Notes: generated from the sequence alone by a model not told the origin. Numbered from the stretch's first letter, positions 3,293 to 55,333 are shown. The stretch: DNA of 64,000 nucleotides from Patescibacteria group bacterium (GCA_042571085.1 JBHPGB010000002.1:6796-70795), one strand, 5' to 3'. Made by a program: numbers and translations.

Positions 3293-5902
3293 TTATAAAT
3301 GTTTTTTCAAATACTCTCCTGTAATTGATTTTTTGTTATCGGCCACCTGCTCTGGTGTACCCTTCGCAATCAAATTTCCGCCACCCTTTCCTCCCTCAGG
3401 GCCGATGTCTACTATATAATCAGCTGTTTTTACTATATCTAAATTGTGTTCAATTAAAACAACCGTGTTTCCTTTATCTACTAATTTCTGTAAAATTTCA
3501 ATCAATTTTTTCACATCTTCATAATGCAAACCAACAGTTGGCTCATCCAAAAGATAAATAGTTTTTTGCACATGAGGACGATACAATTCTGAAGAAATTT
3601 TTACTCTCTGTGCTTCTCCACCAGAAAGCGTCGTTGCTGATTGTCCCAATTCCAAATACCCAAGCCCTACATCATTCAAACTTTTTAGACGATCGTGAAT
3701 TGCTGGAATATCTTCAAAAAATTCCAGAGCTTCTTCAACTGTCATTTTAAGCACATCGTAAATATTTTTCTTTTTATACTTTACTTCCAAAGTTTCTTTT
3801 TCAAATCTTTTTCCGCCACACACATCACACTTCACATACACAGTCGGCAGAAAATGCATTTCAACAGCTATCTGCCCATTACCTTGGCATGATTCGCAGC
3901 GACCACCCTTCACGTTAAAACTAAAGCGGTTAGCTTTCCAGCCACGAAATCGCGCTTCTTCTGTTGCCGCAAACAAATCTCTAATATGTGTAAACGAACC
4001 AGTATATGTAGCTGGGTTAGATCTTGGTGTGCGTCCAATCGGTGCTTGATCTATAAGAATAGAACGAGAAACATATTCAGAACCAGTAAAGTCTGCGCAA
4101 TTATATATATCATTGCTTCTATATTTTTTATCGAAACGCGCCCGTAAGTTTTTATACAAAATCTCATGCATCAAAGAGCTTTTTCCAGAACCAGATACAC
4201 CGGTAATCACACTCATTTTCCCAAGCGGAAAATCAACATTCATGTTTTTGATGTTAAATATATTTCCTCCGCGAATTTTGATTGAACCTTTGTCTTGATC
4301 GCGGCGTTTATGCGGTACTTCTATTTCAGTATCTCCACGCAAATAATCAAGTGTTAAAGATTTTGATGGGTTTGTTTTTGCTGATAAAAGTTTTTCCAAA
4401 TCATCTGCAACAACAATCTCACCGCCATGTATACCCGCCTTTGGACCGATGTCCACAATATAATCAGAAGCAAAAATAGTATCCTCATCGTGCTCGACAA
4501 CAATGATGGTGTTGCCAAGGTCACGTAGGTTTTGAAGTGTTTTTATGAGACGGTCATTATCACGCTGGTGTAGGCCAATAGTAGGCTCATCAAGCACATA
4601 CAGTGCTCCAACCAAGCGAGAACCAAGCTGTGATGCCAAGCGAATACGCTGTGCTTCTCCACCAGAGAGTGTGTTGGCGCGTCTATCTAATGTAAGATAT
4701 TCAATTCCAACATCAAGCATGAAAAATAACCGAGCTTCAATTTCCCTCATAACAGGCTCGGATATTTCTTTATCTCTAACAGACAATTTCAAACTAGTGA
4801 AAAATTCTGCTGCTTCGCCAATAGACATTGATGTCACTTCTACTATATTTTTACCCCCGATTAAAACATTAAGCGCTTCCGATCTTAATCTCGCACCTTT
4901 ACACGTATCACATACCTCTTTACCAAAGAAATGTTTTGTACCAAGGCCATTACAAGCCTCACAAGCACCATAAGGTGAGTTGAATGAGAAAAGTCTTGGC
5001 TCAACTTCTGGATATGAAAAACCATCCTCCGGACAAGAAAACTTCGATGAAAGTATTATTTCATCATCATCTATGCGCACGCGTACAAGCCCATCAGCTT
5101 CATCAAGAGCGCGCTCTAGAGATTCCTGTAAGCGTTGTTTAGTATCTTTCGCATTCTCTTTAAAATCAAGTAAATCAATTTCATCCACCAAAACGTCGAT
5201 GTCATGCTTCTTTGTTTTGGTGAGCACAATCTGGTCACGTAAAGATTTCATTTTTCCGTCAACTCGCACATTTATATACCCTTTGCCTAGTAAATCATAA
5301 AGAAGTTGGTAATACTCACCCTTTCTCCCACGCACCACCGGTGCAAAAAGCTGTACTGAGCTAGACTTATATTCCACACCCATTACTTTTTTTGTACCAT
5401 TTTTCTTTTGTGTCTTTCCTGCACCTTTCACTTTTTTCAAAACAAAATTCAAAATCTCTTCATTAGAAAGCTTTTCAATTTCCCTACCACACTCCAAACA
5501 ATGCGGCTTTCCAATACGCGCAAAAAGTACACGCATATAATCGTATATTTCTGTAATAGTCGCCACTGTTGAACGTGGGTTGTTTGATCTACTTTTCTGA
5601 TCAATAGAAATCGCTGGAGAAAGCCCGACGATCTCATCAACATCTGGCTTCTGCATTTGACGCAAAAATTGTCGCGCGTATGCAGACAAAGATTCTACAT
5701 AACGACGCTGTCCTTCAGCAAAAATAGTATCAAAAGCAAGAGAAGATTTTCCTGATCCAGATAATCCAGTAAACACAACCATCTTATTGCGAGGCATTTC
5801 TACCGTCACATCTTTGAGATTATGTGTGCGGGCACCTTTTACTATTATTTTGCCAGACTCGAACATGTCTGATTCTTTTTTGTTATTTGTATTCTTTTTC
5901 AT
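3293..5902 (-). CDS. uvrA: excinuclease ABC subunit A (start uncertain: MKKNT at 5902 or MFESG at 5866)
   Basis: Two ABC ATPase modules ([20 protein letters not shown]), zinc-finger CxxC pairs, LSGGEAQR signatures. Confidence 0.9.
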
Positions 5903-7114: not shown

Positions 7115-9142
7115 TTATTTACCCATCTTTTCAAGAATTTCTATTTCGTCTCGAAGAATTGCAGCTGTTTCAAAATCTAGAATTTTTACCGCTGCATTCA
7201 TTTGTTTCTCCTTGGTCGCAATCACCTTCTTTAGTTTCTTAGGATTATCAGCAAATTTCTTTTTATCTATTTCCAGAAGTGCGTTGACTGCTTTACCGTG
7301 CTGGCTTTCCATTTGCTCGGTAATATCATGAATTTTTTTGATGATTGTTTTGGGGGTAATTCCGTGCTTTTTATTATATTCCATTTGCAATTTGCGACGA
7401 CGGTTTGTCTCCCCTACGGCTCGGTCAATTGAACCTGTAATGTTGTCGGCATACAAGATAACTTTACCTGCCGCATTTCGTGCCGCACGTCCGATAGTTT
7501 GAATAAGGGCTGTTTCGCTACGTAAAAAACCTTCTTTGTCTGCATCTAAAATTCCAATTAGTGTAACTTCTGGCAAATCCAACCCTTCACGCAAAAGGTT
7601 TACACCAACCAAACAGTCAAATTCACCCTTACGAAATTCCGTAAGAATTTTAATCCTATCTATTGTTTTTATATCACTATGCAGATATTCGGCTTTTATT
7701 CCTTTTTCTTTTAGAAATACACTCAGATCTTCCGCCATTCTTTTTGTGAGGGTTGTTGCGATGACGCGATTCCCTTTCTTGATTTCCTTCTCTGATTCAG
7801 CAATGAAATCTTTAATCTGCCCTTTGTACTTACCTTTTTCAATAATCGGTCGGATATCAATCTCTGGGTCCAGAAGTCCTGTTGGTCTAATTATCTGTTC
7901 AACAACATTACCTTTTGACTCTTCGATCTCATATTCGGCCGGTGTTGCAGATGTATATATTACTTGTCCAACTCTCTCATCAAATTCTTCAAATCGTAGA
8001 GGTCGGTTATCTAGCGCGCTCGGTAGTCGGAAACCATATTCTACCAAAGTACTCTTTCGTGACTGGTCACCTGCGTACATACCACGAACCTGCGGCACTG
8101 TTACGTGCGACTCATCTATTACTGTAAGAAAATCTGCACTCCCGTCTTCTTTGTGTGGAAAATAGCTAAGTAAAGTTTCCGCTGGCTCTCCAGCTTTTTT
8201 ACCAGAAAGATGTCGGGAATAATTTTCAATACCATTACAATATCCAACCTCTTTGATAAGTGCCAAATCATGATTGGTACGACGCCGCAATCTCTCCGCG
8301 TCTAATTCCTTCCCATCTTTTTCTAATTTTTTTAATTGCGTAGCAAGTTCAGCTTTGATAGCTTTAATTGCTCGCTTCTTTTTACTTTCGTCAGTTAAAA
8401 AGTGTTTTGCCGGGAAAAGAAATACGTCATCCACCTCTTCCAAAATTGTACCGGATACTGGATCAATATGAGTAATTCTCGCAATTGCCCCATTGGAAAT
8501 TTCAATACGATAAACAGTACGTTGTGATGTAGACATCACCTCTACAACATTACCAACACTTCTAAATGTGCCGGGTTTCAAATCAGCTGTTGTGCGTTCA
8601 AAAAACACTGAAACTAATTTACGCAAGAGCGTATTCCGATCCATTTTATCTCCAATCTTCAAAACCAAATTCATTTCCAGATATTCTTTTGGGCTTCCGA
8701 GGCCGTAAATACATGAAACCGATGCAACAATAATCACATCTTTTCTCGAAAGCAACGCTTGTGTGGAGGCATGGCGCAACCTATCGATTTCTTCATTAAT
8801 CTGCGCATCTTTCTCAATGTATGTATCTGTCACGGGCATATAAGCTTCTGGCTGATAGAAGTCGTAATAAGAAACAAAATAGTGCACCGCATTGTCTGGA
8901 AAAAACTCTTTGTATTCTTGCGCAAGCTGAGCTGCTAGAGTTTTGTTATGAGCAATCACAAGCGTTGGTTTTTGCACGTTCTCAATCACATTCGCAACCG
9001 TGAAAGTCTTTCCGGAACCAGTCACACCTAAAAGCGTCTGGTGCTCTATTCCATTTTTCACACCGTCAATCAGTTTTTTTATTGCATTCGGCTGATCCCC
9101 AGCAGGTTTATATTCGCTTTTTAACTTGAATTTTTTCGACAT
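7115..9142 (-). CDS. uvrB: excinuclease ABC subunit B
   Basis: GVTGSGKT Walker A, helicase motifs, beta-hairpin region, C-terminal UVR domain (ILRDEIEILEKMGK). Confidence 0.9.
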   Translation of the reverse strand: MSKKFKLKSEYKPAGDQPNAIKKLIDGVKNGIEHQTLLGVTGSGKTFTVANVIENVQKPTLVIAHNKTLAAQLAQEYKEFFPDNAVHYFVSYYDFYQPEAYMPVTDTYIEKDAQINEEIDRLRHASTQALLSRKDVIIVASVSCIYGLGSPKEYLEMNLVLKIGDKMDRNTLLRKLVSVFFERTTADLKPGTFRSVGNVVEVMSTSQRTVYRIEISNGAIARITHIDPVSGTILEEVDDVFLFPAKHFLTDESKKKRAIKAIKAELATQLKKLEKDGKELDAERLRRRTNHDLALIKEVGYCNGIENYSRHLSGKKAGEPAETLLSYFPHKEDGSADFLTVIDESHVTVPQVRGMYAGDQSRKSTLVEYGFRLPSALDNRPLRFEEFDERVGQVIYTSATPAEYEIEESKGNVVEQIIRPTGLLDPEIDIRPIIEKGKYKGQIKDFIAESEKEIKKGNRVIATTLTKRMAEDLSVFLKEKGIKAEYLHSDIKTIDRIKILTEFRKGEFDCLVGVNLLREGLDLPEVTLIGILDADKEGFLRSETALIQTIGRAARNAAGKVILYADNITGSIDRAVGETNRRRKLQMEYNKKHGITPKTIIKKIHDITEQMESQHGKAVNALLEIDKKKFADNPKKLKKVIATKEKQMNAAVKILDFETAAILRDEIEILEKMGK

Positions 9143-12622: not shown

Positions 12623-15346
12623 TTATATTTTAGACATTGATTTTAGAAAAATACTAAAATCGCTAATATTAATTATACCATTATTATCAAAATCAAGTGC
12701 ATTACGCAGTGGATTATTTTCGTCTCCCCATCTAAAAAGAAAGATACTCCAATCTGTAATATCAATTGCATCATCATCGTTCAAATCTGTATTTGCTGAT
12801 ACTTGTCCAGAAACTTTAAAAGTTATCGGATATGAATACGTACTTGTTATTTCGTTCCAAGTTTGTCTGACTTTTGCAAAATAAATACCCTCTTCAATTT
12901 CGGATGCGGGAATTTCAAATAAATATGAACCATCTGAACCAGCATCTGTTTCAAACTTATAAGTCCCATCCAAACTAAGCTCCACAACACTATTTGCAGC
13001 CGTATGACCAAACACAATCAAGTTTTCACTGAGATTTAAGTATTCCTTTTCAATACTTATTGTTGGTGACATGAGAATATTTTCAACAACAAGACTTCGC
13101 TCTGAATTAAAATCAACCCTGAAAGACATTATTCCGGTTTCGTGCTCATCTTTATCTACTGCTTTTAAAGTAATGAAATATTTACCTGTCAGAAGTGCCG
13201 TATAATCGATATAAAATTCTCCATTTTCTGTAATCCTATTTATGGCAATGGGGATATTTTGAAAAGAAGGATTGACATCATTTACCATTGAAACTAAAAT
13301 TTGGCTTCTAGGAAAAGCTTGCCCGGAAAATCTAATTTTTGTTGCAGCAGATCCGCCGCCGCCTTCTAGTACGGTTATAGATGGTCCTTCTAGTGTTGTT
13401 TCATTTGTAACATTGGAGAGTGCTGACTCATTAGGTGCCTCATCTGAAGTTTTCATTGCAAAATAATATGTCGTACCTGAATTCAAACTAGAAACGGTCA
13501 TTGATTCGCCAGTACCTGCAATAGACGGAGTCGGTTCTCCTGTGGCCTGTGTCGCACTACCCCAATTACCATCATTAATAGTTGCTGTGGAATATCTCAC
13601 GTCATATGTTGTCGCAGTGCCACTAGATCCATCGTCTCCTGGAGCAGTCCAAGACAAATCTATCGCGTAACTAGCTGGGTTAGAAGCAGCAAGATCGGAA
13701 ACAGCTGCTGGTGGTGTGGAATCTCCAGATGAGGTTGTGGTATCACTCGCTACATTTGAAAGCCCTGACTCATTGGGAACTTCATCAGAAGTCTTCATTG
13801 CAAAATAATATGTTGTGCCAGCGCTCAGACCTGTGACAGTCATTGATTCGGCTGTACTTGCAACAGACGGTGATGGTTCATCCGGAACTACAGGTGTAGC
13901 GGAAGCCCAGTTGCCATCATTAATAGTTGCTGTGGAATATCTAATATCATATGTAGTCGCTGTGCCACTAGATCCATCGTCTCCTGGAGCAGTCCAATCT
14001 AAATCAATAGTAGTATCTGTTGGAGATGATGCTGCTAAATCTGAAGTGGTTGATGGTGGAGTTGAATCTCCAGACACCCCTGTTGCAGCACTCGTAACAT
14101 TAGAAAGTCCGGATTCATTTGGTACTTCATCTGAGGTCTTCATTGCAAAGTAGTACGTAGTATCTGCACTTAGTCCAGTAACTGTCATTGATTCAGCAGT
14201 ACTAGCAACGGATGGTGATGGCTCATCTGGAACAACAGGAGTTGCTGAGGCCCAGTTGCCGTCGTTGATAGTTGCGGTTGAGTATCTAATATCATAAGTA
14301 GTGGCAGTACCTGTACTTCCATCATCTCCAGGGGCTGTCCAATCAAGATCTATAGTAGAAGTAGTCGGGCCAGAAGCTGTAAGATCAGAAGTGGTTGCCG
14401 GTGGAGTTGAATCACCAGCAGGACTTGTTGCAGCACTCGTCACATTAGAAAGCGCAGACTCGTTTGGAACCTCATCTGATGTTTTCATTGCAAAATAGTA
14501 TGTTGTGCCAGCACTCAGACCTGTGACAGTCATTGATTCGGCTGTACTTGCAACAGACGGTGATGGTTCATCCGGAACTACAGGAGTTGCTGAGGCCCAG
14601 TTGCCGTCGTTGATAGTTGCGGTTGAGTATCTAATATCATAAGTAGTGGCAGTACCTGTACTTCCATCATCTCCAGGGGCTGTCCAGTCTAGATCTATAG
14701 TCGTGCTTGTTGGACCAGAAGCAGTCAGATCAGAGGTTGTTGCTGGTGGAGTCGAGTCTGCCGGGGTGTAGGTGATAACTGTTTTTAATTGAGAAATCCT
14801 CACATCCTTACCTGCGCTTGTGTCAATAATACCAATCTCTATATCACTCCCACTTGCTTTAGTATGACTCACTGAAAAAGACTGCGTTGCTTCTGCATAA
14901 CTATTCCCTGTTGTAAGATCTGCTCCAGAACTTGTACAGGCACCATCAAAACAATAACGAGTCTGAAATGTACCACCATTTGAACCCTCTTTAAAATAAC
15001 AAGCAGTAACATCTATATTAGTAATGGATGCACCATCTGGAATACCTGATTCATCAATATCAAACGTTTGACTCACGTCAACACCGTTACTATATATGTA
15101 TGAAATATCTCCATCCGAATTAGCACATTCAGCGCCAGTGGTTTCATCAACTTCCAAATAACAATCAGCGGCATTACATGCTGTAGCACCGGTATTTAAC
15201 CAACTTGCACTGTCTTCTCCACCATCAGCGGACGGCATCAAAGAAGAGGTAACGTCTGCAGACACACTAACAACCATTATTGCGATCCAAGCAATAATAA
15301 AAGCGCCTAAAAAAATGGAGAATTTTTTGATTTCAAATTTAATCAT
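12623..15346 (-). CDS. large surface protein with 4 tandem fibronectin type III-like repeats and a C-terminal type-I dockerin module
   Basis: N-terminal signal/TM. Four roughly 115-aa near-identical repeats (TPPATTSDL...TTYYFAMKTSDEVPNES). C-terminal duplicated Ca-binding dockerin repeats DLNDDDAIDITDWSIFL and DFDNNGIINISDFSIFL. Confidence 0.7.
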   Translation of the reverse strand: MIKFEIKKFSIFLGAFIIAWIAIMVVSVSADVTSSLMPSADGGEDSASWLNTGATACNAADCYLEVDETTGAECANSDGDISYIYSNGVDVSQTFDIDESGIPDGASITNIDVTACYFKEGSNGGTFQTRYCFDGACTSSGADLTTGNSYAEATQSFSVSHTKASGSDIEIGIIDTSAGKDVRISQLKTVITYTPADSTPPATTSDLTASGPTSTTIDLDWTAPGDDGSTGTATTYDIRYSTATINDGNWASATPVVPDEPSPSVASTAESMTVTGLSAGTTYYFAMKTSDEVPNESALSNVTSAATSPAGDSTPPATTSDLTASGPTTSTIDLDWTAPGDDGSTGTATTYDIRYSTATINDGNWASATPVVPDEPSPSVASTAESMTVTGLSADTTYYFAMKTSDEVPNESGLSNVTSAATGVSGDSTPPSTTSDLAASSPTDTTIDLDWTAPGDDGSSGTATTYDIRYSTATINDGNWASATPVVPDEPSPSVASTAESMTVTGLSAGTTYYFAMKTSDEVPNESGLSNVASDTTTSSGDSTPPAAVSDLAASNPASYAIDLSWTAPGDDGSSGTATTYDVRYSTATINDGNWGSATQATGEPTPSIAGTGESMTVSSLNSGTTYYFAMKTSDEAPNESALSNVTNETTLEGPSITVLEGGGGSAATKIRFSGQAFPRSQILVSMVNDVNPSFQNIPIAINRITENGEFYIDYTALLTGKYFITLKAVDKDEHETGIMSFRVDFNSERSLVVENILMSPTISIEKEYLNLSENLIVFGHTAANSVVELSLDGTYKFETDAGSDGSYLFEIPASEIEEGIYFAKVRQTWNEITSTYSYPITFKVSGQVSANTDLNDDDAIDITDWSIFLFRWGDENNPLRNALDFDNNGIINISDFSIFLKSMSKI
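13390..14765. repeat. four tandem direct repeats of about 345 bp (FN3-repeat coding units)
   Basis: Repeat anchors TTCATTGCAAA(A/G)TA at about 13452, 13794, 14140 and 14485 (spacing 341-346 bp). Units 1-3 are nearly identical at nucleotide level. Confidence 0.8.
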
Positions 15347-23166: not shown

Positions 23167-23281
23167 GGCTGCCAGATAGGGACTCGCCTCTCACAAATCA
23201 AAGATTTGTTCCGAAACGCACTATTTTTATAATCGCTTCGCTCTTTAAAAATAGGCGCCTACGGTTCGAGTCCTATATCTG
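23167..23281. repeat. tRNA-associated element copy 1: conserved core of about 76 nt flanked by an inverted and a direct copy of the tRNA-Gln 3' end
   Basis: GGCTGCCAGATAGGGACTCG (reverse complement of the tRNA-Gln T-arm/acceptor 3' strand), then core CCTCTCACAAATCAAAGATTTGTTCCGAAACGCACTATTTTTATA...AAAAATAGGCGCCTAC, then GGTTCGAGTCCTATATCTG. Same core at 40405-40522. Confidence 0.75.
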
Positions 23282-23475: not shown

Positions 23476-23505
23476 CGTAGTCCTACCATTAGACGATCTG
23501 GCAAT
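23476..23505 (-). pseudogene. exact duplicate of the 5' 28 nt of tRNA-Gln (5'-half pseudo-copy) about 70 nt upstream of the tRNA
   Basis: CGTAGTCCTACCATTAGACGATCTGGCAAT is identical to the 5' part of the tRNA gene at 23376-23405. Confidence 0.7.
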
Positions 23506-35755: not shown

Positions 35756-35835
35756 ATTTTAACACATGAAAATTAAAATCTAAAGTTCTGGAAATGTTTG
35801 ATTTTTATAAACTTTTTCAGTAGTATATGTGCATT

Positions 35836-35899
35836 GCCGGAGTGGTGGAATTGGTATACACGCACGACTCAAAATCGTGTTCCGCAAGGATTGAGGGTT
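35836..35899 (+). pseudogene. truncated tRNA-Leu(CAA) copy: the 5' 64 nt are identical to the complete gene 200 nt downstream, then diverge
   Basis: GCCGGAGTGGTGGAATTGGTATACACGCACGACTCAAAATCGTGTTCCGCAAGGATTGAGGGTT followed by GAACTCCGAGC instead of the T-loop/acceptor. Confidence 0.65.
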
Positions 35900-35931
35900 G
35901 AACTCCGAGCTAGACGAGGAGTGAAAAACCT

Positions 35932-35987
35932 TTTGAGGTAGATTAGAGTGAGGTACGAACGAATAATGTACCCAAAAGGTGTACTGA
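35932..35987. repeat. conserved tRNA-cluster motif (family 2), copy at the Leu(CAA) locus
   Basis: TTTGAGGTAGATTAGAGTGAGGTACGAACGAATAATGTACCCAAAAGGT. Related copies at 50976-51032, 51405-51452, partial at 49932-49947. Confidence 0.65.
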
Positions 35988-36033
35988 TCCTGTAAGGATC
36001 AAGTCCGGACTTGAACCCTTTAAAATTAAATAT

Positions 36034-36115
36034 GCCGGAGTGGTGGAATTGGTATACACGCACGACTCAAAATCGTGTTCCGCAAGGATTGAGGGTTCAA
36101 GTCCCTCCTCCGGCA
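36034..36115 (+). tRNA. tRNA-Leu (anticodon CAA), type II with long variable arm
   Basis: Acceptor GCCGGAG/CTCCGGC. Anticodon stem CACGA/TCGTG, loop CTCAAAA. T-arm GGGTTCAAGTCCC. Confidence 0.8.
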
Positions 36116-36228
36116 CAAAAAGAAAAATCTCAAGTTTTGCTTGAGATTTTTACTTTTTACAAACTAGACAAATGTAATCAAAAAGACTACTATGCTGCCA
36201 GGCTTCCTATGATCTAATGGAGAATATA

Positions 36229-36384
36229 AATGCCTCAGAAAAAACCTGAGCAAAAAATCCCAAAAACCAAACGTTTCGCTGTATCACATAATGTTGTGTG
36301 CCCAAACTGCTGTAAAATGAGCCGTAATGTTAAATTGGGCACACAAACATGTGTGTATTGTTGCAAAAAAATGCACGTCTATTA
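36229..36384 (+). CDS. possible 51-aa Cys-rich zinc-ribbon small protein
   Basis: GGAGAATATAA-ATG RBS. CPNCC...CVYCC motifs. Followed by a strong terminator AAAACCCTTGATC...GATCAAGGGTTT. Below the ORF-track cutoff. Confidence 0.4.
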
Positions 36385-36423
36385 AAAACCCTTGATTCTT
36401 TTTTGATCAAGGGTTTCTTTTAT

Positions 36424-40404: not shown

Positions 40405-40522
40405 GTGCGCCGAGTAGGATTTGCCTCTCACAAATCAAAGATTTGTTCCGAAACGCACTATTTTTATAGTCGTTAAACACTCCTTAAAAATAGGCGCCTA
40501 CGGTTCAAACCCTACTCGGCAT
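40405..40522. repeat. tRNA-associated element copy 2: same conserved core flanked by an inverted and a direct copy of the tRNA-Tyr 3' end
   Basis: GTGCGCCGAGTAGGATTTG (reverse complement of the tRNA-Tyr 3' end), core identical to the 23187-23262 core over its first 46 nt and last 16 nt, then GGTTCAAACCCTACTCGGCAT. Confidence 0.75.
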
Positions 40523-45653: not shown

Positions 45654-46052
45654 TTACAAAAATTCTTTTACTAAATTTCTAACCTTTTCAAACTCTTCTT
45701 CAGAAAAGGTACGGACCTTTCTCAAAAGCCTTTTACTGCTTATTGTTCTAATTTGAGACAATATAATTGAATATTTTTCTCCATTATATTCAAATTGGTA
45801 ATAATACTTCCCTGTTTTGTTTTTGCTCGTAAGTGGCAATATCCATAACATATCTTTATTAAACTTTTTCAAAATAAGTATAGGTCTTTCAAACTTTTCA
45901 TTCTTTCCGTCTTGCTCATACCCAATATTAGCACCTAGACTTGCCCACCAGATTTCTCGTTCCTTAAAATATGGTAATTCCTCTTCGGAAATATAAATTC
46001 TAACTTTTAACTTCGTCCATTCTACGAACTTTAATAATATTTCCCTATTCAT
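45654..46052 (-). CDS. mazF: PemK/MazF-family endoribonuclease toxin homologue; start overlaps the iscS stop (ATGA)
   Basis: MazF-like blocks IWWASLGANIGYEQDG and ERPILILKKFNKDMLWILPLTS. No antitoxin ORF upstream. Confidence 0.55.
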   Translation of the reverse strand: MNREILLKFVEWTKLKVRIYISEEELPYFKEREIWWASLGANIGYEQDGKNEKFERPILILKKFNKDMLWILPLTSKNKTGKYYYQFEYNGEKYSIILSQIRTISSKRLLRKVRTFSEEEFEKVRNLVKEFL

Positions 46053-49893: not shown

Positions 49894-49921
49894 GGTCTGG
49901 TGGCGAAGTGGTAACGTAGCG
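49894..49921 (+). pseudogene. tRNA-Cys-like 5' fragment (26 of 28 nt identical to the 5' part of tRNA-Cys 120 nt downstream)
   Basis: GGTCTGGTGGCGAAGTGGTAACGTAGCG versus GGCCTGGTGGCGAAGTGGTAACGCAGCG. Followed by a family-2 motif fragment (AAAGGAGTGAAGCGAC) rather than an anticodon arm. Confidence 0.55.
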
Positions 49922-50041
49922 CTCAATGAAGAAAGGAGTGAAGCGACTATTCTGAATTAGTGCAAAGCCGATAATCGATTCCCGTACATTATCATGTTAG
50001 AATTGTTACAATATTAAAATAAGCAAAGCTTGAAATTATAA

Positions 50042-50113
50042 GGCCTGGTGGCGAAGTGGTAACGCAGCGGTTTGCAAAACCGATATGCGCGGGTTCAATT
50101 CCCGCCCAGGCCT
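50042..50113 (+). tRNA. tRNA-Cys (anticodon GCA)
   Basis: Acceptor GGCCTGG/CCAGGCC. Anticodon loop TTGCAAA. T-arm GCGGG-TTCAATT-CCCGC. Confidence 0.75.
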
Positions 50114-50200
50114 CAATTTTCCATGCGATTTAATTATTAAACAGGTAAACGCATATATTTACGTATTGCGTATTGGTTTACCTAATGATATTATGAATAA

Positions 50201-50692
50201 ATGCACGGAAAAGAGAAAAAAAGAAGATGGTCAGAAGATGACTTAAAAAATGCTGTGTTGAATTCTACAAGTATTCGACAAGTTCTGGGTAAGCTTAATT
50301 TAAAACAAGCTGGTGGAAATTATGTGCAGGTCAAATATTATATTAAAAAATATAATATTGATATAAAACATTTTACTGGACAAGGCTGGAACAAGGGAAT
50401 GCGCGGCATTGGTAAACCTAGAATTTCTTTAAAAGAAATTCTAACAAAAAATAGTTCTTTTCAAAGTTATAAATTAAAAAAAAGACTTTTTAAAGAAGGT
50501 CTAAAAAAACCACAATGTGAAGAGTGTGGCTGGGCAAAAAAATCTAAAGACGGAAGAATTCCTTTAGAGTTAGATCATGTGAATGGTACCCGAACAGATA
50601 ATCGATTAGAAAATTTACGAGTACTATGCCCAAACTGCCATAGTCTAAAACCTACACATCGTGGATTGAACAAAAAAAAGGGCCAGTGGTGA
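50201..50692 (+). CDS. free-standing HNH endonuclease (homing-endonuclease-like), embedded in the tRNA cluster; the stop overlaps the 5' end of tRNA-Leu(TAA)
   Basis: HNH motif CEECGW...LELDHVNGTRTDNRLENLRVLCPNCH. Basic N-terminal DNA-binding-like region. Confidence 0.7.
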   Translation: MHGKEKKRRWSEDDLKNAVLNSTSIRQVLGKLNLKQAGGNYVQVKYYIKKYNIDIKHFTGQGWNKGMRGIGKPRISLKEILTKNSSFQSYKLKKRLFKEGLKKPQCEECGWAKKSKDGRIPLELDHVNGTRTDNRLENLRVLCPNCHSLKPTHRGLNKKKGQW

Positions 50693-50899: not shown

Positions 50900-50975
50900 C
50901 ACGCAGCGTTAGCGTAGTGCACAACCGGAAGCACAGCAATTTTGAAAAAATTGCGTCATGCGGATTTGAAAAGCT

Positions 50976-51032
50976 TTTGAGATAGATTGGAGTGCGGAGC
51001 ACGAACAATATATCCAAAAGGTTGAAGTGTGA
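50976..51032. repeat. conserved tRNA-cluster motif (family 2), copy downstream of tRNA-Lys
   Basis: TTTGAGATAGATTGGAGTGCGGAGCACGAACAATATATCCAAAAGGTTGAAGTGTGA. Covarying triloop hairpin GTGC-GGA-GCAC (GTG-AGG-TAC and TGC-GAA-GCA in other copies). Confidence 0.65.
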
Positions 51033-51134
51033 TTTTTATGAACACTGAAAGACCATTTGAGTTAATTTCGAATCTGAAAGATGAAGAAAATAACCAAATG
51101 GTATACTGCTCATGTAATGAGGGCAGAATCTGTA

Positions 51135-51162
51135 AGATTCAAATCCTTCCGGGCGGACACGC
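51135..51162 (+). repeat. direct repeat of the 3' 28 nt of tRNA-Lys, about 230 nt downstream of the gene
   Basis: GATTCAAATCCTTCCGGGCGGACACGCA versus tRNA GGTTCAAATCCTTCCGGGCGGACACGCA (27 of 28 nt). Confidence 0.7.
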
Positions 51163-51185
51163 AATTTAGCGTAAAATTAAATAAT

Positions 51186-51267: not shown

Positions 51268-51404
51268 CAAAACAAAAAAGTGTGATGCGTCAGCATTACA
51301 CTTTTATTGTTTTGTAGTGTGGTGGAGAAACTCGAAAAAAGCTTCCGGTATACAAGAAGCGACTGGAAGGAGCTTCTTGTCGGAAGCGACGGGGTCGCGT
51401 AGCT

Positions 51405-51475
51405 TAGATATTTTGGAGTGCGAAGCATGAACAAAATATCAAGCGAAGGCGACCGAGTCTCTTCACCCGCACAAA
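51405..51475 (+). repeat. family-2 motif copy fused to a 22-nt direct repeat of the tRNA-Leu(TAG) 3' end
   Basis: TAGATATTTTGGAGTGCGAAGCATGAACAAAATATCAAGCGAAGGCGAC followed by CGAGTCTCTTCACCCGCACAAA (identical to the tRNA 3' end plus 3 flanking nt). Confidence 0.7.
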
Positions 51476-51638: not shown

Positions 51639-52787
51639 ATGAGTAAATTCGACTTATATTCCTATGGAATAGTTGGACTAATCATATTGCTGATTGTGTC
51701 ACTAATTATCTTTAGTAAACGCAAAAAAGCTAGAAAACCTGTTGATATTGAGATCATTGCTGAAGATGCTCTTGCGCAACGATGCGTATGGTCACGTAAC
51801 ATACATTTTGTATTTATAACAGCACTTGCTGCGTACACACCTTTCTTTGTGTCAGATTTACTATACGTCAAACTTGTACCACATCTCGGTGCGTGGTTTA
51901 GTGAATTTGAAACACCTAGAGCTACAATAATGGCTCTTTGTGTATACATAGTATGGGGCATGTATGGATACTTTCTACCGCGTAGGCTGTTGACCTTCGT
52001 GCCAAAAGTCAAGGGTTTTGTTTCGCAAGACATCTTCAAAAAAAGAGATGTAATGGTTCCTTATGGGCCAGGTCTTCATGCGTCATTCTTTTGGGAAGCT
52101 CGAGACAAAGACAGTAACGTGCCACTGGAGACATTTTCATGGTCAGATACAGTCACCATACCTACGAGCACCTCTGCTGTGGAGTTTGAATACACAGTAG
52201 TATGTCGTGCATACATGCCAAAACTGCCAGAGTTTCATGCTACAGATGAAACTGTATTGAGAGAAAAGTTTTTGCAAATATATGAAACCTTTCTTTCAGT
52301 CTGGGTAAATAAAAATATAGACGATGAGGTGAATGGTTCCATAGAAAAAGATGTTGCCTATATCGTAAAGAACGGTGTGCATGATGTAAATGAAGCATTG
52401 AAAAAAGTTTTCACCTTTAAACCTGGAGAAAGATACGTGCCAGAACAGGACGAGGAGAAACTTTTCGCATACCAGCACGGGACTCTCATCATAAGTACTG
52501 GCGTAAACAAAGTTAAATTGCCAGATGAAGTACAAAAAACTCGTGATGCACTTGCTGAATCCGAAACCATATTTGCAGGAACCGCAAGTATCCTCGGATT
52601 AAAATCAAATGAACTACGACAACGTCTTGACGGTGAAACAGTGTCGCATGAGCAATATGAGGCCGCACGAGCTGTATATCTGTCAACAAGTGGCAATGCA
52701 AAACTAGACTTTATAAACGTCACAGGAACGGCAGCCGATGCAGTAAATGCGCTAATTGGCAAACATCTGAAAGGAGGTGTTCAATGA
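51639..52787 (+). CDS. membrane protein, possible SPFH/band-7-like domain
   Basis: GGAG RBS. Two N-terminal TM segments. PGLH block reminiscent of stomatin/prohibitin-like proteins. Weak assignment. Confidence 0.45.
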   Translation: MSKFDLYSYGIVGLIILLIVSLIIFSKRKKARKPVDIEIIAEDALAQRCVWSRNIHFVFITALAAYTPFFVSDLLYVKLVPHLGAWFSEFETPRATIMALCVYIVWGMYGYFLPRRLLTFVPKVKGFVSQDIFKKRDVMVPYGPGLHASFFWEARDKDSNVPLETFSWSDTVTIPTSTSAVEFEYTVVCRAYMPKLPEFHATDETVLREKFLQIYETFLSVWVNKNIDDEVNGSIEKDVAYIVKNGVHDVNEALKKVFTFKPGERYVPEQDEEKLFAYQHGTLIISTGVNKVKLPDEVQKTRDALAESETIFAGTASILGLKSNELRQRLDGETVSHEQYEAARAVYLSTSGNAKLDFINVTGTAADAVNALIGKHLKGGVQ

Positions 52788-53349: not shown

Positions 53350-53649
53350 CTAAACAGGGTTTGTGAATCCAAAAGTATTGGCTAAGAATGTAACTATGCC
53401 CATAACGGAAATCATAATAAACATACCAAAGAGCCCCCACATGATATGCTTCTTGCCTTGCTCACGCGCATTTTCATCATTTGCTTGAAACAAGAAGCGT
53501 GCGATTCCCCAAAGGAATAATACAAGGGCAAGTGCAAACAAAAATCCAATAAGAGGATTTATTATGTTGTCTACAACCCTATCAATAAGTGGCTCAAGCC
53601 CAGACTCTACTACCGCAGCATGCACTGTTTGTACATTTAGAACATTCAT
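53350..53649 (-). CDS. VirB2/TrbC-like small membrane protein, paralogue 1 (start at MNVLNV; the ORF-track start at 53697 would overlap the upstream paralogue)
   Basis: Two hydrophobic helices separated by a conserved charged loop ANDENAREQGKKH. Confidence 0.45.
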   Translation of the reverse strand: MNVLNVQTVHAAVVESGLEPLIDRVVDNIINPLIGFLFALALVLFLWGIARFLFQANDENAREQGKKHIMWGLFGMFIMISVMGIVTFLANTFGFTNPV

Positions 53650-53653
53650 AGAT

Positions 53654-53977
53654 TTATATTCTTGGTAATGTGATTGTACCACCTGTCTGTACACCAAATG
53701 TATTAGCTACAACTTCAACAAGACCCCACACCGCAACCATCACGAAGAGTGCCAAGATACCATAGATCATGATGCTCTTTCCTTTTTCTTTATCTTCATC
53801 AGCCTTGAAGATGTACTGTGCCAATCCATAGAAAAATCCAATAAGAGCAACAGTCATCACAATTGGAATAATTAAATCCAATATTTGTTTAAACTTGTTT
53901 AAAACAGATATAGCATCTGCTGCCAATGCAACACTAGGAAGTGCTACTGCACCAGCAATAATAAGAAATCTTTTCAT
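53654..53977 (-). CDS. VirB2/TrbC-like small membrane protein, paralogue 2
   Basis: Signal peptide. Two TM helices. Loop KADEDKEKGKS. Confidence 0.45.
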   Translation of the reverse strand: MKRFLIIAGAVALPSVALAADAISVLNKFKQILDLIIPIVMTVALIGFFYGLAQYIFKADEDKEKGKSIMIYGILALFVMVAVWGLVEVVANTFGVQTGGTITLPRI

Positions 53978-54117
53978 ACAAATAAAATTAATTGATTAAA
54001 TTGATTAAAAAAATTAAAAGCGACCTTGTAATTTATACTTATATAATAGCCAATATACTCACAAATAACAAATCAAATGTGGAAAATTAATTTTCAACCT
54101 ACAAAATAAAGGTGTTA

Positions 54118-54459
54118 TTAAAAACCGAAAAATGTTCTCCGTACAGCAATCGCAATTCCCCACACTGCAATAAGAGCAAATAAGGCAAAAATACCAAATA
54201 CCATAGCTTTGCGCCCTTCCTCGCGAGCATTTGCATCGTCTGCCTTCAATACCATCTTCGCAATTCCCCAAAAAAATCCTGCCAAAGCGGCTGTTATTAG
54301 AATAGGGATCGCAATATCAAAAATACGTGTGAAAATACCTAGAAAATCTGCAAAATTTGTAGGAGCCGCAGCAAAAGAAATGGTTGGGCTAAGTAATAAT
54401 ACCACGTATAAAATTGCCGTAGATAAGATATTTATTCTTCTGTTTTTTAAATTTAACAT
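54118..54459 (-). CDS. VirB2/TrbC-like small membrane protein, paralogue 3
   Basis: Signal peptide. Two TM helices. Loop KADDANAREEGRK. Confidence 0.45.
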   Translation of the reverse strand: MLNLKNRRINILSTAILYVVLLLSPTISFAAAPTNFADFLGIFTRIFDIAIPILITAALAGFFWGIAKMVLKADDANAREEGRKAMVFGIFALFALIAVWGIAIAVRRTFFGF

Positions 54460-54547
54460 TTTTAAATTTCACGACTCGGCTTCGCCTCGCTGCACTGCGT
54501 TTTGTATTCAATCACTGCGTTCTTGAACAAAACGGGAGCATAATAAT

Positions 54548-54904
54548 TTACCTTAATGTGCTTATTGTTCCGCCTATCGCCTCTGCAAGAACCCATGCGC
54601 CAAGTATAATCGCTCCGCCAATGATAGACCACGTAAGTGCTGTTTTTGCTTCTCCAAGCTTTGTTTCATTACCTTGTGCCTTAATATACAAAAATCCAGA
54701 ATACACTATTGCAAGCACAACAACAGGAAAACCGATGTCAGCTACAACCTTAAGTACTTTCTGCAAAAATATATATATAGTATCAGTGCCCCTAAGAGGG
54801 TTTTCCAAATCCTGACTTATTACTGGCGTGTCTGCAAAAACAGTGTTTACGGAAGCAAAAAAAGCAACGAGTGATGTGTAATAAATTTTATTAAATAATT
54901 TCAT
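54548..54904 (-). CDS. VirB2/TrbC-like small membrane protein, paralogue 4
   Basis: Signal peptide. Two TM helices. Loop KAQGNETKLGEAK. Confidence 0.45.
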   Translation of the reverse strand: MKLFNKIYYTSLVAFFASVNTVFADTPVISQDLENPLRGTDTIYIFLQKVLKVVADIGFPVVVLAIVYSGFLYIKAQGNETKLGEAKTALTWSIIGGAIILGAWVLAEAIGGTISTLR

Positions 54905-54928
54905 AAGATTTTTATTAAAAGTATTAAA

Positions 54929-55333
54929 TTATCTCCCAAGTCTAATTGCCCAATCTTCTGCACCAAGACCTACAAGAATTGCTTTCACAATAAGCCACGC
55001 TGCAAGTATTATTACCAAGCCAATAAAAACAGATGTGAAAATTCCGTGTGCTTTTTTTATCTGTCCTGTATCCCCAGCTGCTGTAATATACATCCACCCA
55101 GCATACGCAAATGCAACCGCAGCAACAAATGGTGACGCCATTATTATAAATTCAATAATATTTTGAGCGAGTTGTACAAGCATATTAAAATCACAGTCTG
55201 GTTGTCCACTACCACCACATGGAACAAGTTTCTTCTCAGCGGCAAAAACAATAATCGGCATAAATAGCACCATACTCAATACTGTTGCATACAAAACCTT
55301 TATTATTTTGTTTTCATGTTTTAATGTTTTCAT
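54929..55333 (-). CDS. VirB2/TrbC-like small membrane protein, paralogue 5 (extra Cys pair)
   Basis: Signal peptide. CGGSGQPDC. Two TM helices. Loop AAGDTGQIKKAH. Confidence 0.45.
   Translation of the reverse strand: MKTLKHENKIIKVLYATVLSMVLFMPIIVFAAEKKLVPCGGSGQPDCDFNMLVQLAQNIIEFIIMASPFVAAVAFAYAGWMYITAAGDTGQIKKAHGIFTSVFIGLVIILAAWLIVKAILVGLGAEDWAIRLGR

Follow-up and report, generated by a model that had tools for sequence, protein, structure and literature searches.

In a 64,000-nucleotide stretch of DNA from a Patescibacteria group bacterium (GCA_042571085.1, JBHPGB010000002.1:6796-70795; the whole stretch is referred to as the window, and positions are counted from its first letter), the gene for tRNA-Leu(CAA) is preceded by a second copy of itself. 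This copy is interrupted in the T-loop by a non-coding cassette and lies between the working gene and a promoter-like element whose conservation and position suggest that it is the ancestral promoter of tRNA-Leu(CAA). Small (about 130-260 nt), structured elements lacking open reading frames (ORFs) make up a lineage-specific family, of which this unit is one, and in this clade of the candidate phyla radiation (CPR) they occur only beside tRNA genes and in the orientation of the tRNA.

A T-loop-interrupted copy precedes the intact tRNA-Leu(CAA) gene

The promoter-like element (TTGATT-17 nt-TAGTAT, 35798..35826, + strand as for all features of this locus) occupies conserved columns of a six-genome alignment and fronts a single tRNA gene in two relatives, L010 and L011; it scores 8/12 where the scan threshold was 9/12. 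Downstream lies an exact copy of tRNA-Leu(CAA) positions 1-64 (35836..35899), the 5' part of the interrupted copy, which stops at T55 of the T-loop immediately after GAGGGTT. A chance origin is impossible for an exact repeat of 64 nt; if extended, the repeat reaches 72 nt at 97% identity, and the repeat spacing is 198 nt. Between T55 and C56 of the copy is inserted a non-coding cassette of 100 nt, termed family-2 (35900..35999), which opens with GAACTCCGAGC and is not tRNA sequence. The interrupted copy resumes with TCAAGTCC (35999..36006), corresponding to T-loop and T-stem bases 55-62, in place of which relatives show CAAGTCCC or CAAATCCC. Directly after it stands GGACTTGAACCCT (36007..36019), an inverted copy of T-arm bases 50-62 that is a 13/13 reverse complement of the T-arm bases at 36092-36104 and is degenerate in L001, L016 and L002; together the two sequences form a palindrome without a loop. 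An A+T-rich spacer of 14 nt (36020..36033) leads to the intact tRNA-Leu(CAA) (36034..36116), identified by ARAGORN and by the Rfam tRNA model (60.2 bits), both of which call a tRNA at the downstream copy alone. The sole intrinsic terminator of the unit follows at 36123..36151. No ORF with a domain was found in 35836-36033, and the 198-nt unit contains no ORF.

An independent ENA assembly (L004) has this unit in identical sequence, and a homologous arrangement is present in the independent assemblies L001, L016 and L002/L003, indicating that it is not an assembly artefact. An initial annotation of this DNA had reported the exact 64-nt copy at 35836-35899, which repeat analysis and this recurrence bear out. 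Its derivation from the tRNA likewise stands; it is, however, not the mere truncated 5' fragment then described, as it continues past the cassette with bases 56-62. The following sequence CTCCGAGC, read at that time as acceptor-like, is better regarded as the 5' strand and loop start of a hairpin (CTCC...GGAG) that is compensated as CTCT...AGAG in relatives, and the palindrome of the T-loop with its own reverse complement is real but lies 14 nt, not 18 nt, before the tRNA. The observation itself is thus confirmed, and the interpretation then placed on it is partly supported.

The unit is an insertion relative to a single ancestral gene

To place the unit, related loci were ordered by the identity of their ParB proteins to that of the window. 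The filled state, consisting of promoter, 64-nt copy, cassette and intact gene, is present in the window (100%), L001 (85%) and L016. In L010 (74%) a promoter-like sequence (TTGATTTTTAT...TAGTAT) stands directly before a single tRNA-Leu(CAA), and L011 (61%) has the same empty state of promoter and then single tRNA. This single tRNA behind a conserved promoter shows that the ancestral locus had one gene and that the 198-nt unit was inserted. The upstream copy is also absent from the more distant L005 (64%) and L006 (56%). In L002/L003 (87%) the copy is eroded to approximately 25 mismatched nt and the main hairpin of the cassette is deleted, with the 3' part of the cassette still recognizable. 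A single insertion, in the ancestor from which the group sharing at least 85% ParB identity descends, was followed by decay of the unit in one lineage and its maintenance in three.

Comparison with orthologous loci had been proposed in the initial annotation as the means of identifying the ancestral copy; what that annotation missed is that the single gene is ancestral and the whole unit inserted. The outcome it had named as contrary, a tandem duplicate simply decaying elsewhere with no associated motif, was not obtained: L001 and L016 keep both the motif and an identical copy, with decay in L002/L003.

The 64-nt copy and the gene evolve in concert

Within each of the window, L001 and L016, the 64-nt copy and the resident tRNA show 0/64 differences. 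Between these three genomes the non-tRNA part of the unit shows 18-20/133-134 differences (13-15%), and the promoter region of the window differs from that of L001 or L016 at 7-9/42-44 positions (16-20%). The tRNA-Leu(CAA) of the window differs from that of L001/L016 by four compensatory changes in the variable arm (TTCCGCAAGGAT versus TGGCGCAAGCCT), and these occur in both copies of each genome. Copy and gene are thereby shown to evolve in concert and not to undergo passive decay. A passively decaying duplicate would show several differences, and the contrast of 0/64 with 13-15% in the cassette indicates that the copies are homogenized by gene conversion or unequal crossing-over. Neutral divergence of the copy, as in a decaying tandem duplicate, was found in L002/L003 alone.

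When L001 and L016 were compared with each other, there were 1/42 differences in the promoter, 0/64 in the tRNA and 18/133 in the cassette, the last gathered in the loop of the second hairpin (h2, below) and the region of the inverted copy. In this pair the cassette changes much faster than its flanks, and does so patchwise.

The L004 contig is identical to the window over 1,521 nt. After its second 64-nt copy the unit restarts (GAACTCCGAGCTAG), with L004 positions 1-14 on the reverse strand corresponding to window 36098 onward, and the terminal 141-mer of the contig is absent from the window. Such a junction may indicate that the population contains a tandem or circular variant, which would agree with ongoing exchange.

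The cassette is structured and predicted to be co-transcribed

The cassette contains three hairpins, h1 (approximately 35902-35922), h2 (35929-35979) and h3 (35986-36000), and the 134-nt region at Leu(CAA) has a fold z-score of -3.5. Helices h1 and h2 are 98-100% paired across four sequences. Three compensatory pairs were observed in the cassette: in h1, CTCC/GGAG becomes CTCT/AGAG in relatives, and in h2, GGTA/TACC becomes GATA/TATC and ATTA/TAAT becomes ATTG/CAAT, the latter with a G-U intermediate in L016. The hairpins are thus shown to be conserved through compensatory changes. Between the truncated copy and the intact tRNA no terminator is predicted, and the unit is therefore predicted to be co-transcribed from the ancestral promoter as a leader of approximately 200 nt.

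Across the elements described below, fold z-scores range from -3.5 to -7.3, and 10/10 elements fold more stably on the tRNA-sense strand (by 2.7-15.5 kcal/mol), with a total of 27 G-U pairs in the sense and 11 in the antisense direction. This sense-strand advantage points to selection on a transcript or on sense-strand single-stranded DNA. The cassette has no match in Rfam 15, even permissively; only the tRNAs pass, and no credible sub-threshold match covers elements A, B, C, E or F. Known structured RNA families (group I and II introns, ribozymes, T-box, transfer-messenger RNA and small RNAs) gave no match at or near the gathering score in Rfam 15. A group I intron, suggested by a U before the junction and a G at the end, was discarded because only elements D and E end in G, the elements are too small and there is no Rfam match. 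A 'stem-GA-loop-GA-stem' regular expression was also abandoned as a marker of the cassette, giving 36 matches against approximately 23 in shuffled sequence and missing true members. Within the element upstream of tRNA-Cys (49969-50057) there is a weak Rfam match to RAGATH-28 (23.5 bits against a gathering threshold of 45.3, E=0.18), which is probably due to chance.

An apical loop motif, GAG(T/C)GAACTTGTGA(A/G)CGAA, is found in the family-2 hairpin of L016 (approximately 1335-1355) and in an unrelated hairpin, of the F family, in L020 (approximately 8385-8405) and L021 (approximately 5470-5490); the loops of the orthologous family-2 hairpins of the window and L001 differ from it. Its presence in all three suggests exchange of loops or cassettes, or a protein-binding motif. 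Assignment of this GAG...CGAA loop to a hammerhead, K-turn or sarcin-ricin motif was rejected, since on inspection the core consensus is not satisfied and Rfam offers no support.

Related elements lie at other tRNA genes

Partial tRNA copies lie near 6/7 of the tRNA genes in the window. The initial annotation had associated all seven with a tRNA-derived repeat, which fails for tRNA-Leu(TAA), where there is none. Elements of 105-260 nt are located 3' of tRNA-Gln, tRNA-Tyr, tRNA-Lys and tRNA-Leu(TAG), each with an inverted copy at the start and an exact tRNA 3' copy from C56 at the end. Element B, 3' of tRNA-Lys (50901..51163, + strand), contains an inverted T-loop copy (50962-50970), then two family-2 hairpins and finally a copy, in direct orientation, of the 3' end of tRNA-Lys (51138-51158) with flanking sequence. 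Element C, 3' of tRNA-Leu(TAG) (51314..51472, + strand; z -6.1), has an inverted copy, two hairpins and a direct tRNA 3'-end copy from C56 (51454-51472). On the - strand, element E, 3' of tRNA-Tyr (40405..40520; z -7.3), consists of an inverted copy (40502-40520), a core and a direct copy from C56 (40405-40423), and element D, 3' of tRNA-Gln (23168..23273; z -4.9), combines the core of E with Gln-type inverted and direct copies, the two cores being 89-95% identical. Fragments comprising positions 1-28 lie upstream of tRNA-Gln (23476..23503, - strand, an exact copy followed by a degenerate remainder) and of the intact tRNA-Cys (49894..49921, + strand, of the GGTCTGG type present in the resident gene of L020). 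The description of the cluster at 49.9-51.5 kb as carrying duplicated 3' ends needs correction at tRNA-Cys, whose duplication is 5'.

Cores are shown to be common to different tRNA sites. The family-2 core is present in the Leu(CAA) unit and the Lys element of the window and in the Leu(TAG) element of L021; the motif, to which the initial annotation had given the name family-2, thus recurs 3' of tRNA-Lys, the hairpin of the Leu(CAA) unit matching the Lys element with E=1e-13 (nhmmer). The F core is located at Leu(CAA) in L001 and at Lys in L020 and L021, and the D/E core at Gln and Tyr in the window. In every case the flanks of a core match the local tRNA and not the one beside which a homologous core lies at another site. 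Profile (nhmmer) matches over 159 kb of CPR DNA were without exception tRNA-adjacent and in tRNA sense, and the architecture of the window elements is present 3' of tRNA-Tyr in L006 (ParB 56%). Nested cassettes were also observed, with a 70-nt insert in the h3 loop of L001, an insert in the F core of L021 and a duplicated hairpin in element B.

Separately, L022 carries at 8101-8190, 3' of tRNA-Leu(TAA), a 5'-truncated pseudo-copy running from the D-arm onward, with a 42-nt exact 3' part, an anticodon loop replaced by GCTGATTTAAATTCGC and no hairpin cassette.

Junctions fall within the T-loop

The junctions of these elements are shown to lie at T-loop positions 54-56: the 5' copy ends at T55, direct 3' copies begin at C56 and inverted copies end at the complement of T54. 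The 3'-type elements have the order direct, inverted, core, direct, with both inner junctions within the T-loop, and in six elements the inverted copy starts +52 to +58 nt past the tRNA end. At 7/9 loci the stretch from T54 to the tRNA end together with the terminator's left arm has its mirror image in the terminator's right arm and the inverted copy (36-42 identical of 39-47 aligned), with the centre of the palindrome +18 to +22 nt past the tRNA end; these mirrored stretches surfaced as microRNA-like Rfam matches. The inverted copy follows the gene beside which it lies, being TTCGAAT/ATTCGAA in L020 and TTCAAAT/ATTTGAA in L021, where the distal direct copy retains CGAAT. The F, C and L006 cores provide a generic 5' strand of the T-stem (AGGGT or GGGGT), which is followed by a hairpin and C56, and thus read in sequence as a T-arm with a hairpin inserted in its loop. 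The Leu(CAA) locus mirrors the logic of the 3' type, with tRNA positions 1-55 followed by the cassette, bases 56-62 and the fold-back. The inverted T-arm copy had earlier been taken to link this locus to the Gln and Tyr elements, and it is indeed common to the Leu, Gln, Tyr, Lys and Leu(TAG) elements. Its interpretation as a retroviral-type primer-binding site was rejected, as it does not reach the tRNA 3' terminus.

Genomic context and candidate mobility enzymes

Genes flanking the locus are housekeeping genes (parB, relA/spoT-like, clpB, infB, gyrA, uvrABC and similar), and the nearest database entries of the window ParB are annotated 'Patescibacteria group bacterium'. A ParB scan of genome contigs yielded two useful loci, both distant, and a search starting from the gene adjoining the tRNA led to a contig that ends before reaching the tRNA. 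No Y1_Tnp/RAYT domain was found in the 64-kb window, and no integrase or recombinase among the called genes of the related loci.

The tRNA-Cys locus carries a gene for a 163-aa protein (Pfam HNH/HNH_3) between tRNA-Cys and tRNA-Leu(TAA), for which a tblastn search against phages gave 257 matches annotated HNH or homing endonuclease. In the window this locus (49894-50692) consists of a 28-nt remnant of resident-type tRNA-Cys, an intact tRNA-Cys with another type of acceptor and the HNH gene; in L021 (4323-5059) it consists of an intact tRNA-Cys, a 5'-truncated tRNA-Cys and HNH; L020 (7883-8077) and L022 (7869-8100) have neither HNH nor an extra tRNA-Cys copy. The locus looks like intron-less homing with gene replacement.

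Several further features were recorded in the window. Just 3' of the Leu(CAA) terminator is a 51-aa ORF (36230-36385) with two CxxC pairs (zinc-ribbon-like) and no Pfam match. Directly 3' of the tRNA cluster, a 382-aa ORF (51639-52787) has no Pfam domain and, against 5.8 billion proteins, returned only itself. At 13394-14569, three to four tandem 345-nt repeats (73-77% identical) lie within a 907-aa ORF with fibronectin type III domains, a gene for a surface protein of repeated domains. Three adjoining small paralogues at 53350-55333, next to a solute-binding protein gene, match the type IV secretion system (T4SS) pilin family (PF18895), and one of the three also matches TrbC/VirB2. A MazF/PemK-like toxin gene (45654-46052) and a cysteine desulfurase-like (Aminotran_5) gene overlap at the end of the latter.

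Discussion

The explanation that we favour, and to which we would assign an even chance, is that the T-loop-interrupted tRNA copy is a member of a tRNA-linked cassette family and originated by breakage, capture and fold-back. A trans-acting enzyme, not encoded in the window, would break or nick the tRNA gene in the T-loop, and repair or recombination of that break would capture a cassette. The neighbouring tRNA segment would be duplicated and partly inverted by hairpin-primed (fold-back or template-switch) synthesis, the fold-back being primed at the T-arm and terminator hairpins, with one intact tRNA gene always surviving. Later exchange between the 64-nt repeats, by gene conversion or unequal crossing-over, would keep the copy equal to the gene, and transcription would include the Leu(CAA) element as a 5' leader, which RNase P would cut away. 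The family is probably a new variety of tRNA-gene-targeting miniature mobile element. More tentatively, and with appreciably less than even confidence, these may be previously undescribed, T-loop-specific, protein-less mobile cassettes of the CPR or, equivalently, a co-transcribed tRNA-mimic 'shadow' RNA for each gene. As mobile cassettes they would pass through hairpin or single-strand intermediates, the direct and inverted copies being re-templated from the adjacent tRNA to give a target-mimicking stem. The mobile-cassette and shadow-RNA versions alike imply an enzyme that recognizes the universal T-loop, whether as DNA or as RNA.

Several observations weigh against this explanation. Pfam searches of the approximately 50 window ORFs detected no integrase, transposase or HUH nuclease, and the only nuclease-like mobile gene in the window, the HNH endonuclease at 50201-50692, is tied to tRNA-Cys. 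No autonomous parent element was found in scans of viral contigs or by blastn of annotated phages, and a metagenome scan with the family-2 hairpin returned one true match and five chance matches, a narrow distribution. For the 3'-type elements, entry may have been at the T-loop with the element's own tRNA 3' end, or past the terminator, and no empty 3' site was recovered. The divergence of cores between tRNAs (roughly 10% or more) resembles divergence between species, so that movement is rare or ancient and not demonstrably ongoing. The covariation test draws on four sequences only, with 23/500 shuffles reaching the observed value, and the L004 restart junction, no more than 14 nt at the end of a contig, could have been produced by the assembler.

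tRNA genes are the classic sites at which mobile DNA inserts; the agents known to do so are kilobase-sized, carry integrases and duplicate the 3' end of the gene. Among known systems, the present elements come closest to tRNA-targeting integrative elements (prophages, integrative and conjugative elements and genomic islands of the T-loop class) in their tRNA association, T-loop boundary, duplicated tRNA segment with one intact gene left (64 nt and atypically 5' here; 56 to end in the 3'-type relatives) and presence/absence polymorphism. They differ in being about 130-260 nt long with no ORF and no integrase nearby, in duplicating at Leu(CAA) the 5' part (1-55) and not the 3' part, in containing an inverted tRNA copy within the unit, and in associating one core with site-specific tRNA segments. 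No integrase was found at the element end in the 198-nt unit, the window or related loci, and no attP is constant across a family, the flanks of D/E, F and family-2 all being local tRNA.

MITEs (miniature inverted-repeat transposable elements), repetitive extragenic palindromic (REP) sequences and bacterial interspersed mosaic elements (BIMEs), and palindrome-associated transposable elements (PATEs) derived from IS200/IS605 are likewise small, non-coding, hairpin-rich, multi-copy, non-autonomous and sometimes nested. The elements described here lack a short fixed target-site duplication, carry inverted ends copied from the local target, are exclusively associated with tRNAs in one orientation and are accompanied by no RAYT or TnpA in the window. 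The constant terminal inverted repeats and short fixed duplication of MITEs are absent, duplications here being 19-64 nt; of the features of REP/BIME-RAYT systems or PATEs, hairpins are present, there is no Y1 in the window and the target is duplicated.

In CTXphi attP(+)/XerCD and in integron attC, too, an inverted repeat with a structured spacer can fold into a target-mimicking duplex, the structure favours one strand, and sequence varies with architecture kept. A hairpin mimic of the T-arm and acceptor duplex exists here, and its sequence, on direct reading, is neither dif-like nor attC-like; the target is a tRNA T-loop, not dif or attI, and GTTCRAN misfits the attC core G/TTRRRY. Integron attC as such was rejected on the same ground, the T-loop not fitting GTTRRRY and the 3' junctions being TT/C, not G/TT. 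Free-standing homing endonuclease cassettes occur in tRNA gene clusters, for example SegB of phage T4, and the HNH gene in the tRNA cluster of the window with its duplicated tRNA-Cys segment is similar; unlike these, the Leu(CAA) element and its relatives encode no protein, and the Leu(CAA) unit contains no endonuclease ORF, HNH belonging to the tRNA-Cys locus. Fold-back inverted duplications share the direct-inverted-direct order and pivots at hairpin loops (terminator loop and T-loop). They are known mainly from gross rearrangements in eukaryotes, whereas here the structures are approximately 100 nt long, recurrent at many tRNA genes and associated with a conserved cassette at one pivot.

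Classical site-specific integration is an unlikely alternative. The elements would be miniature, cargo-less derivatives mobilized by an integrase, or fused att arms left by internal deletion, recombination taking place in the T-loop and the element carrying one side of the gene to restore the tRNA; in a variant, the att site would be a folded single strand that mimics the target duplex, as in CTXphi and integron attC. A duplicated tRNA segment with its boundary in the T-loop, as seen here, is the hallmark of T-loop-class integration into tRNA genes, the element sizes (170-260 nt) come close to that of a whole attP, the inverted and direct copies make a duplex mimic of the target, and the predicted order of host 1-55, then 56-76, terminator, inverted copy and core, then host 56-76 is the order observed. 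The L004 junction would on this account be the attP junction of a circular form. A fixed attP, however, does not explain one core with different, locally matched tRNA segments; the 5'-side (1-55) and 3'-side (56 to end) duplications require different crossover regions; neither the 64 kb nor the fetched loci contain an integrase; and the hairpins show RNA-like, sense-strand selection. We regard it as rather improbable that the elements are functional RNAs, namely tRNA-derived 'shadow' leaders and trailers co-transcribed with each tRNA. Their stems would imitate or sequester the cognate T-arm and acceptor, with a part in the folding, processing or decay of pre-tRNA, or they would serve as decoys for proteins that bind or cleave tRNAs, and the tRNA fragments would be working parts and not insertion scars. 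The sense-strand folding advantage (10/10) and G-U excess (27 versus 11), the compensatory changes in the cassette helices and the strict co-orientation with tRNAs all favour such a role, as do the inverted copy that tracks the local T-loop (L020 versus L021), the architecture repeated in the distant L006, the retention by element C of tRNA-like segments in the correct order and the predicted transcription of element A necessarily as a leader. Against a functional RNA, the unit is absent in L010 and L011 and decayed in L002/L003 with the tRNA retained, different core families occupy one site across genomes (B versus F at tRNA-Lys), elements of the 3' type stand behind terminators and would be transcribed only poorly, relatives do not conserve the inverted T-arm copy of the Leu(CAA) locus, and no Rfam family is matched.

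Scars of homing endonucleases offer an explanation to which we attach little probability. A free-standing HNH enzyme like that encoded at 50201-50692 would cut tRNA genes, and error-prone repair with no dedicated cassette, by fold-back priming or template switching between tRNA loci, would leave partial tRNA copies, direct and inverted, and filler. The HNH gene is indeed located within the tRNA cluster and accompanies a copy of tRNA-Cys, its product resembles phage homing endonucleases, and direct-inverted-direct structures, established as products of fold-back repair in eukaryotic and some bacterial systems, are typical of such repair. Random filler would nevertheless not be expected to yield conserved structured cores with compensatory changes, nor do precise junctions (55/56) across unrelated tRNAs fit; the HNH gene is linked to tRNA-Cys only. 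A plain tandem tRNA duplicate in decay, its likeness elsewhere arising from common tRNA sequence, or an assembly artefact, is highly improbable. The decayed upstream copy of L002/L003 and the plain pseudo-copy without a cassette 3' of tRNA-Leu(TAA) in L022 fit simple decay. Decay is largely refuted by the identity of the copies (0/64 in three genomes against 13-15% in the adjoining cassette), the hairpin covariation and the recurrence of the cassette core at other tRNA sites, and recurrence of the arrangement in at least five independent assemblies speaks against an artefact.

No description of such elements was found in the full-text literature, the coverage of which was incomplete, so that this is absence of evidence only. 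In the reduced genome of a CPR bacterium, 6/7 tRNA genes in 64 kb bear tiny, non-coding, structured units that duplicate either side of the gene, break at one T-loop bond, hold an inverted copy of their target and swap cores. Such units will confuse tRNA annotation and the assembly of metagenome-assembled genomes in Patescibacteria. The perfectly kept 64-nt copy provides a clean natural case of short-tract gene conversion in an uncultured lineage. Were a T-loop nick and hairpin-primed repair to prove the origin of these elements, they would represent a new route for selfish DNA into the most conserved seven nucleotides in biology and would account for the origin of partial tRNA genes.

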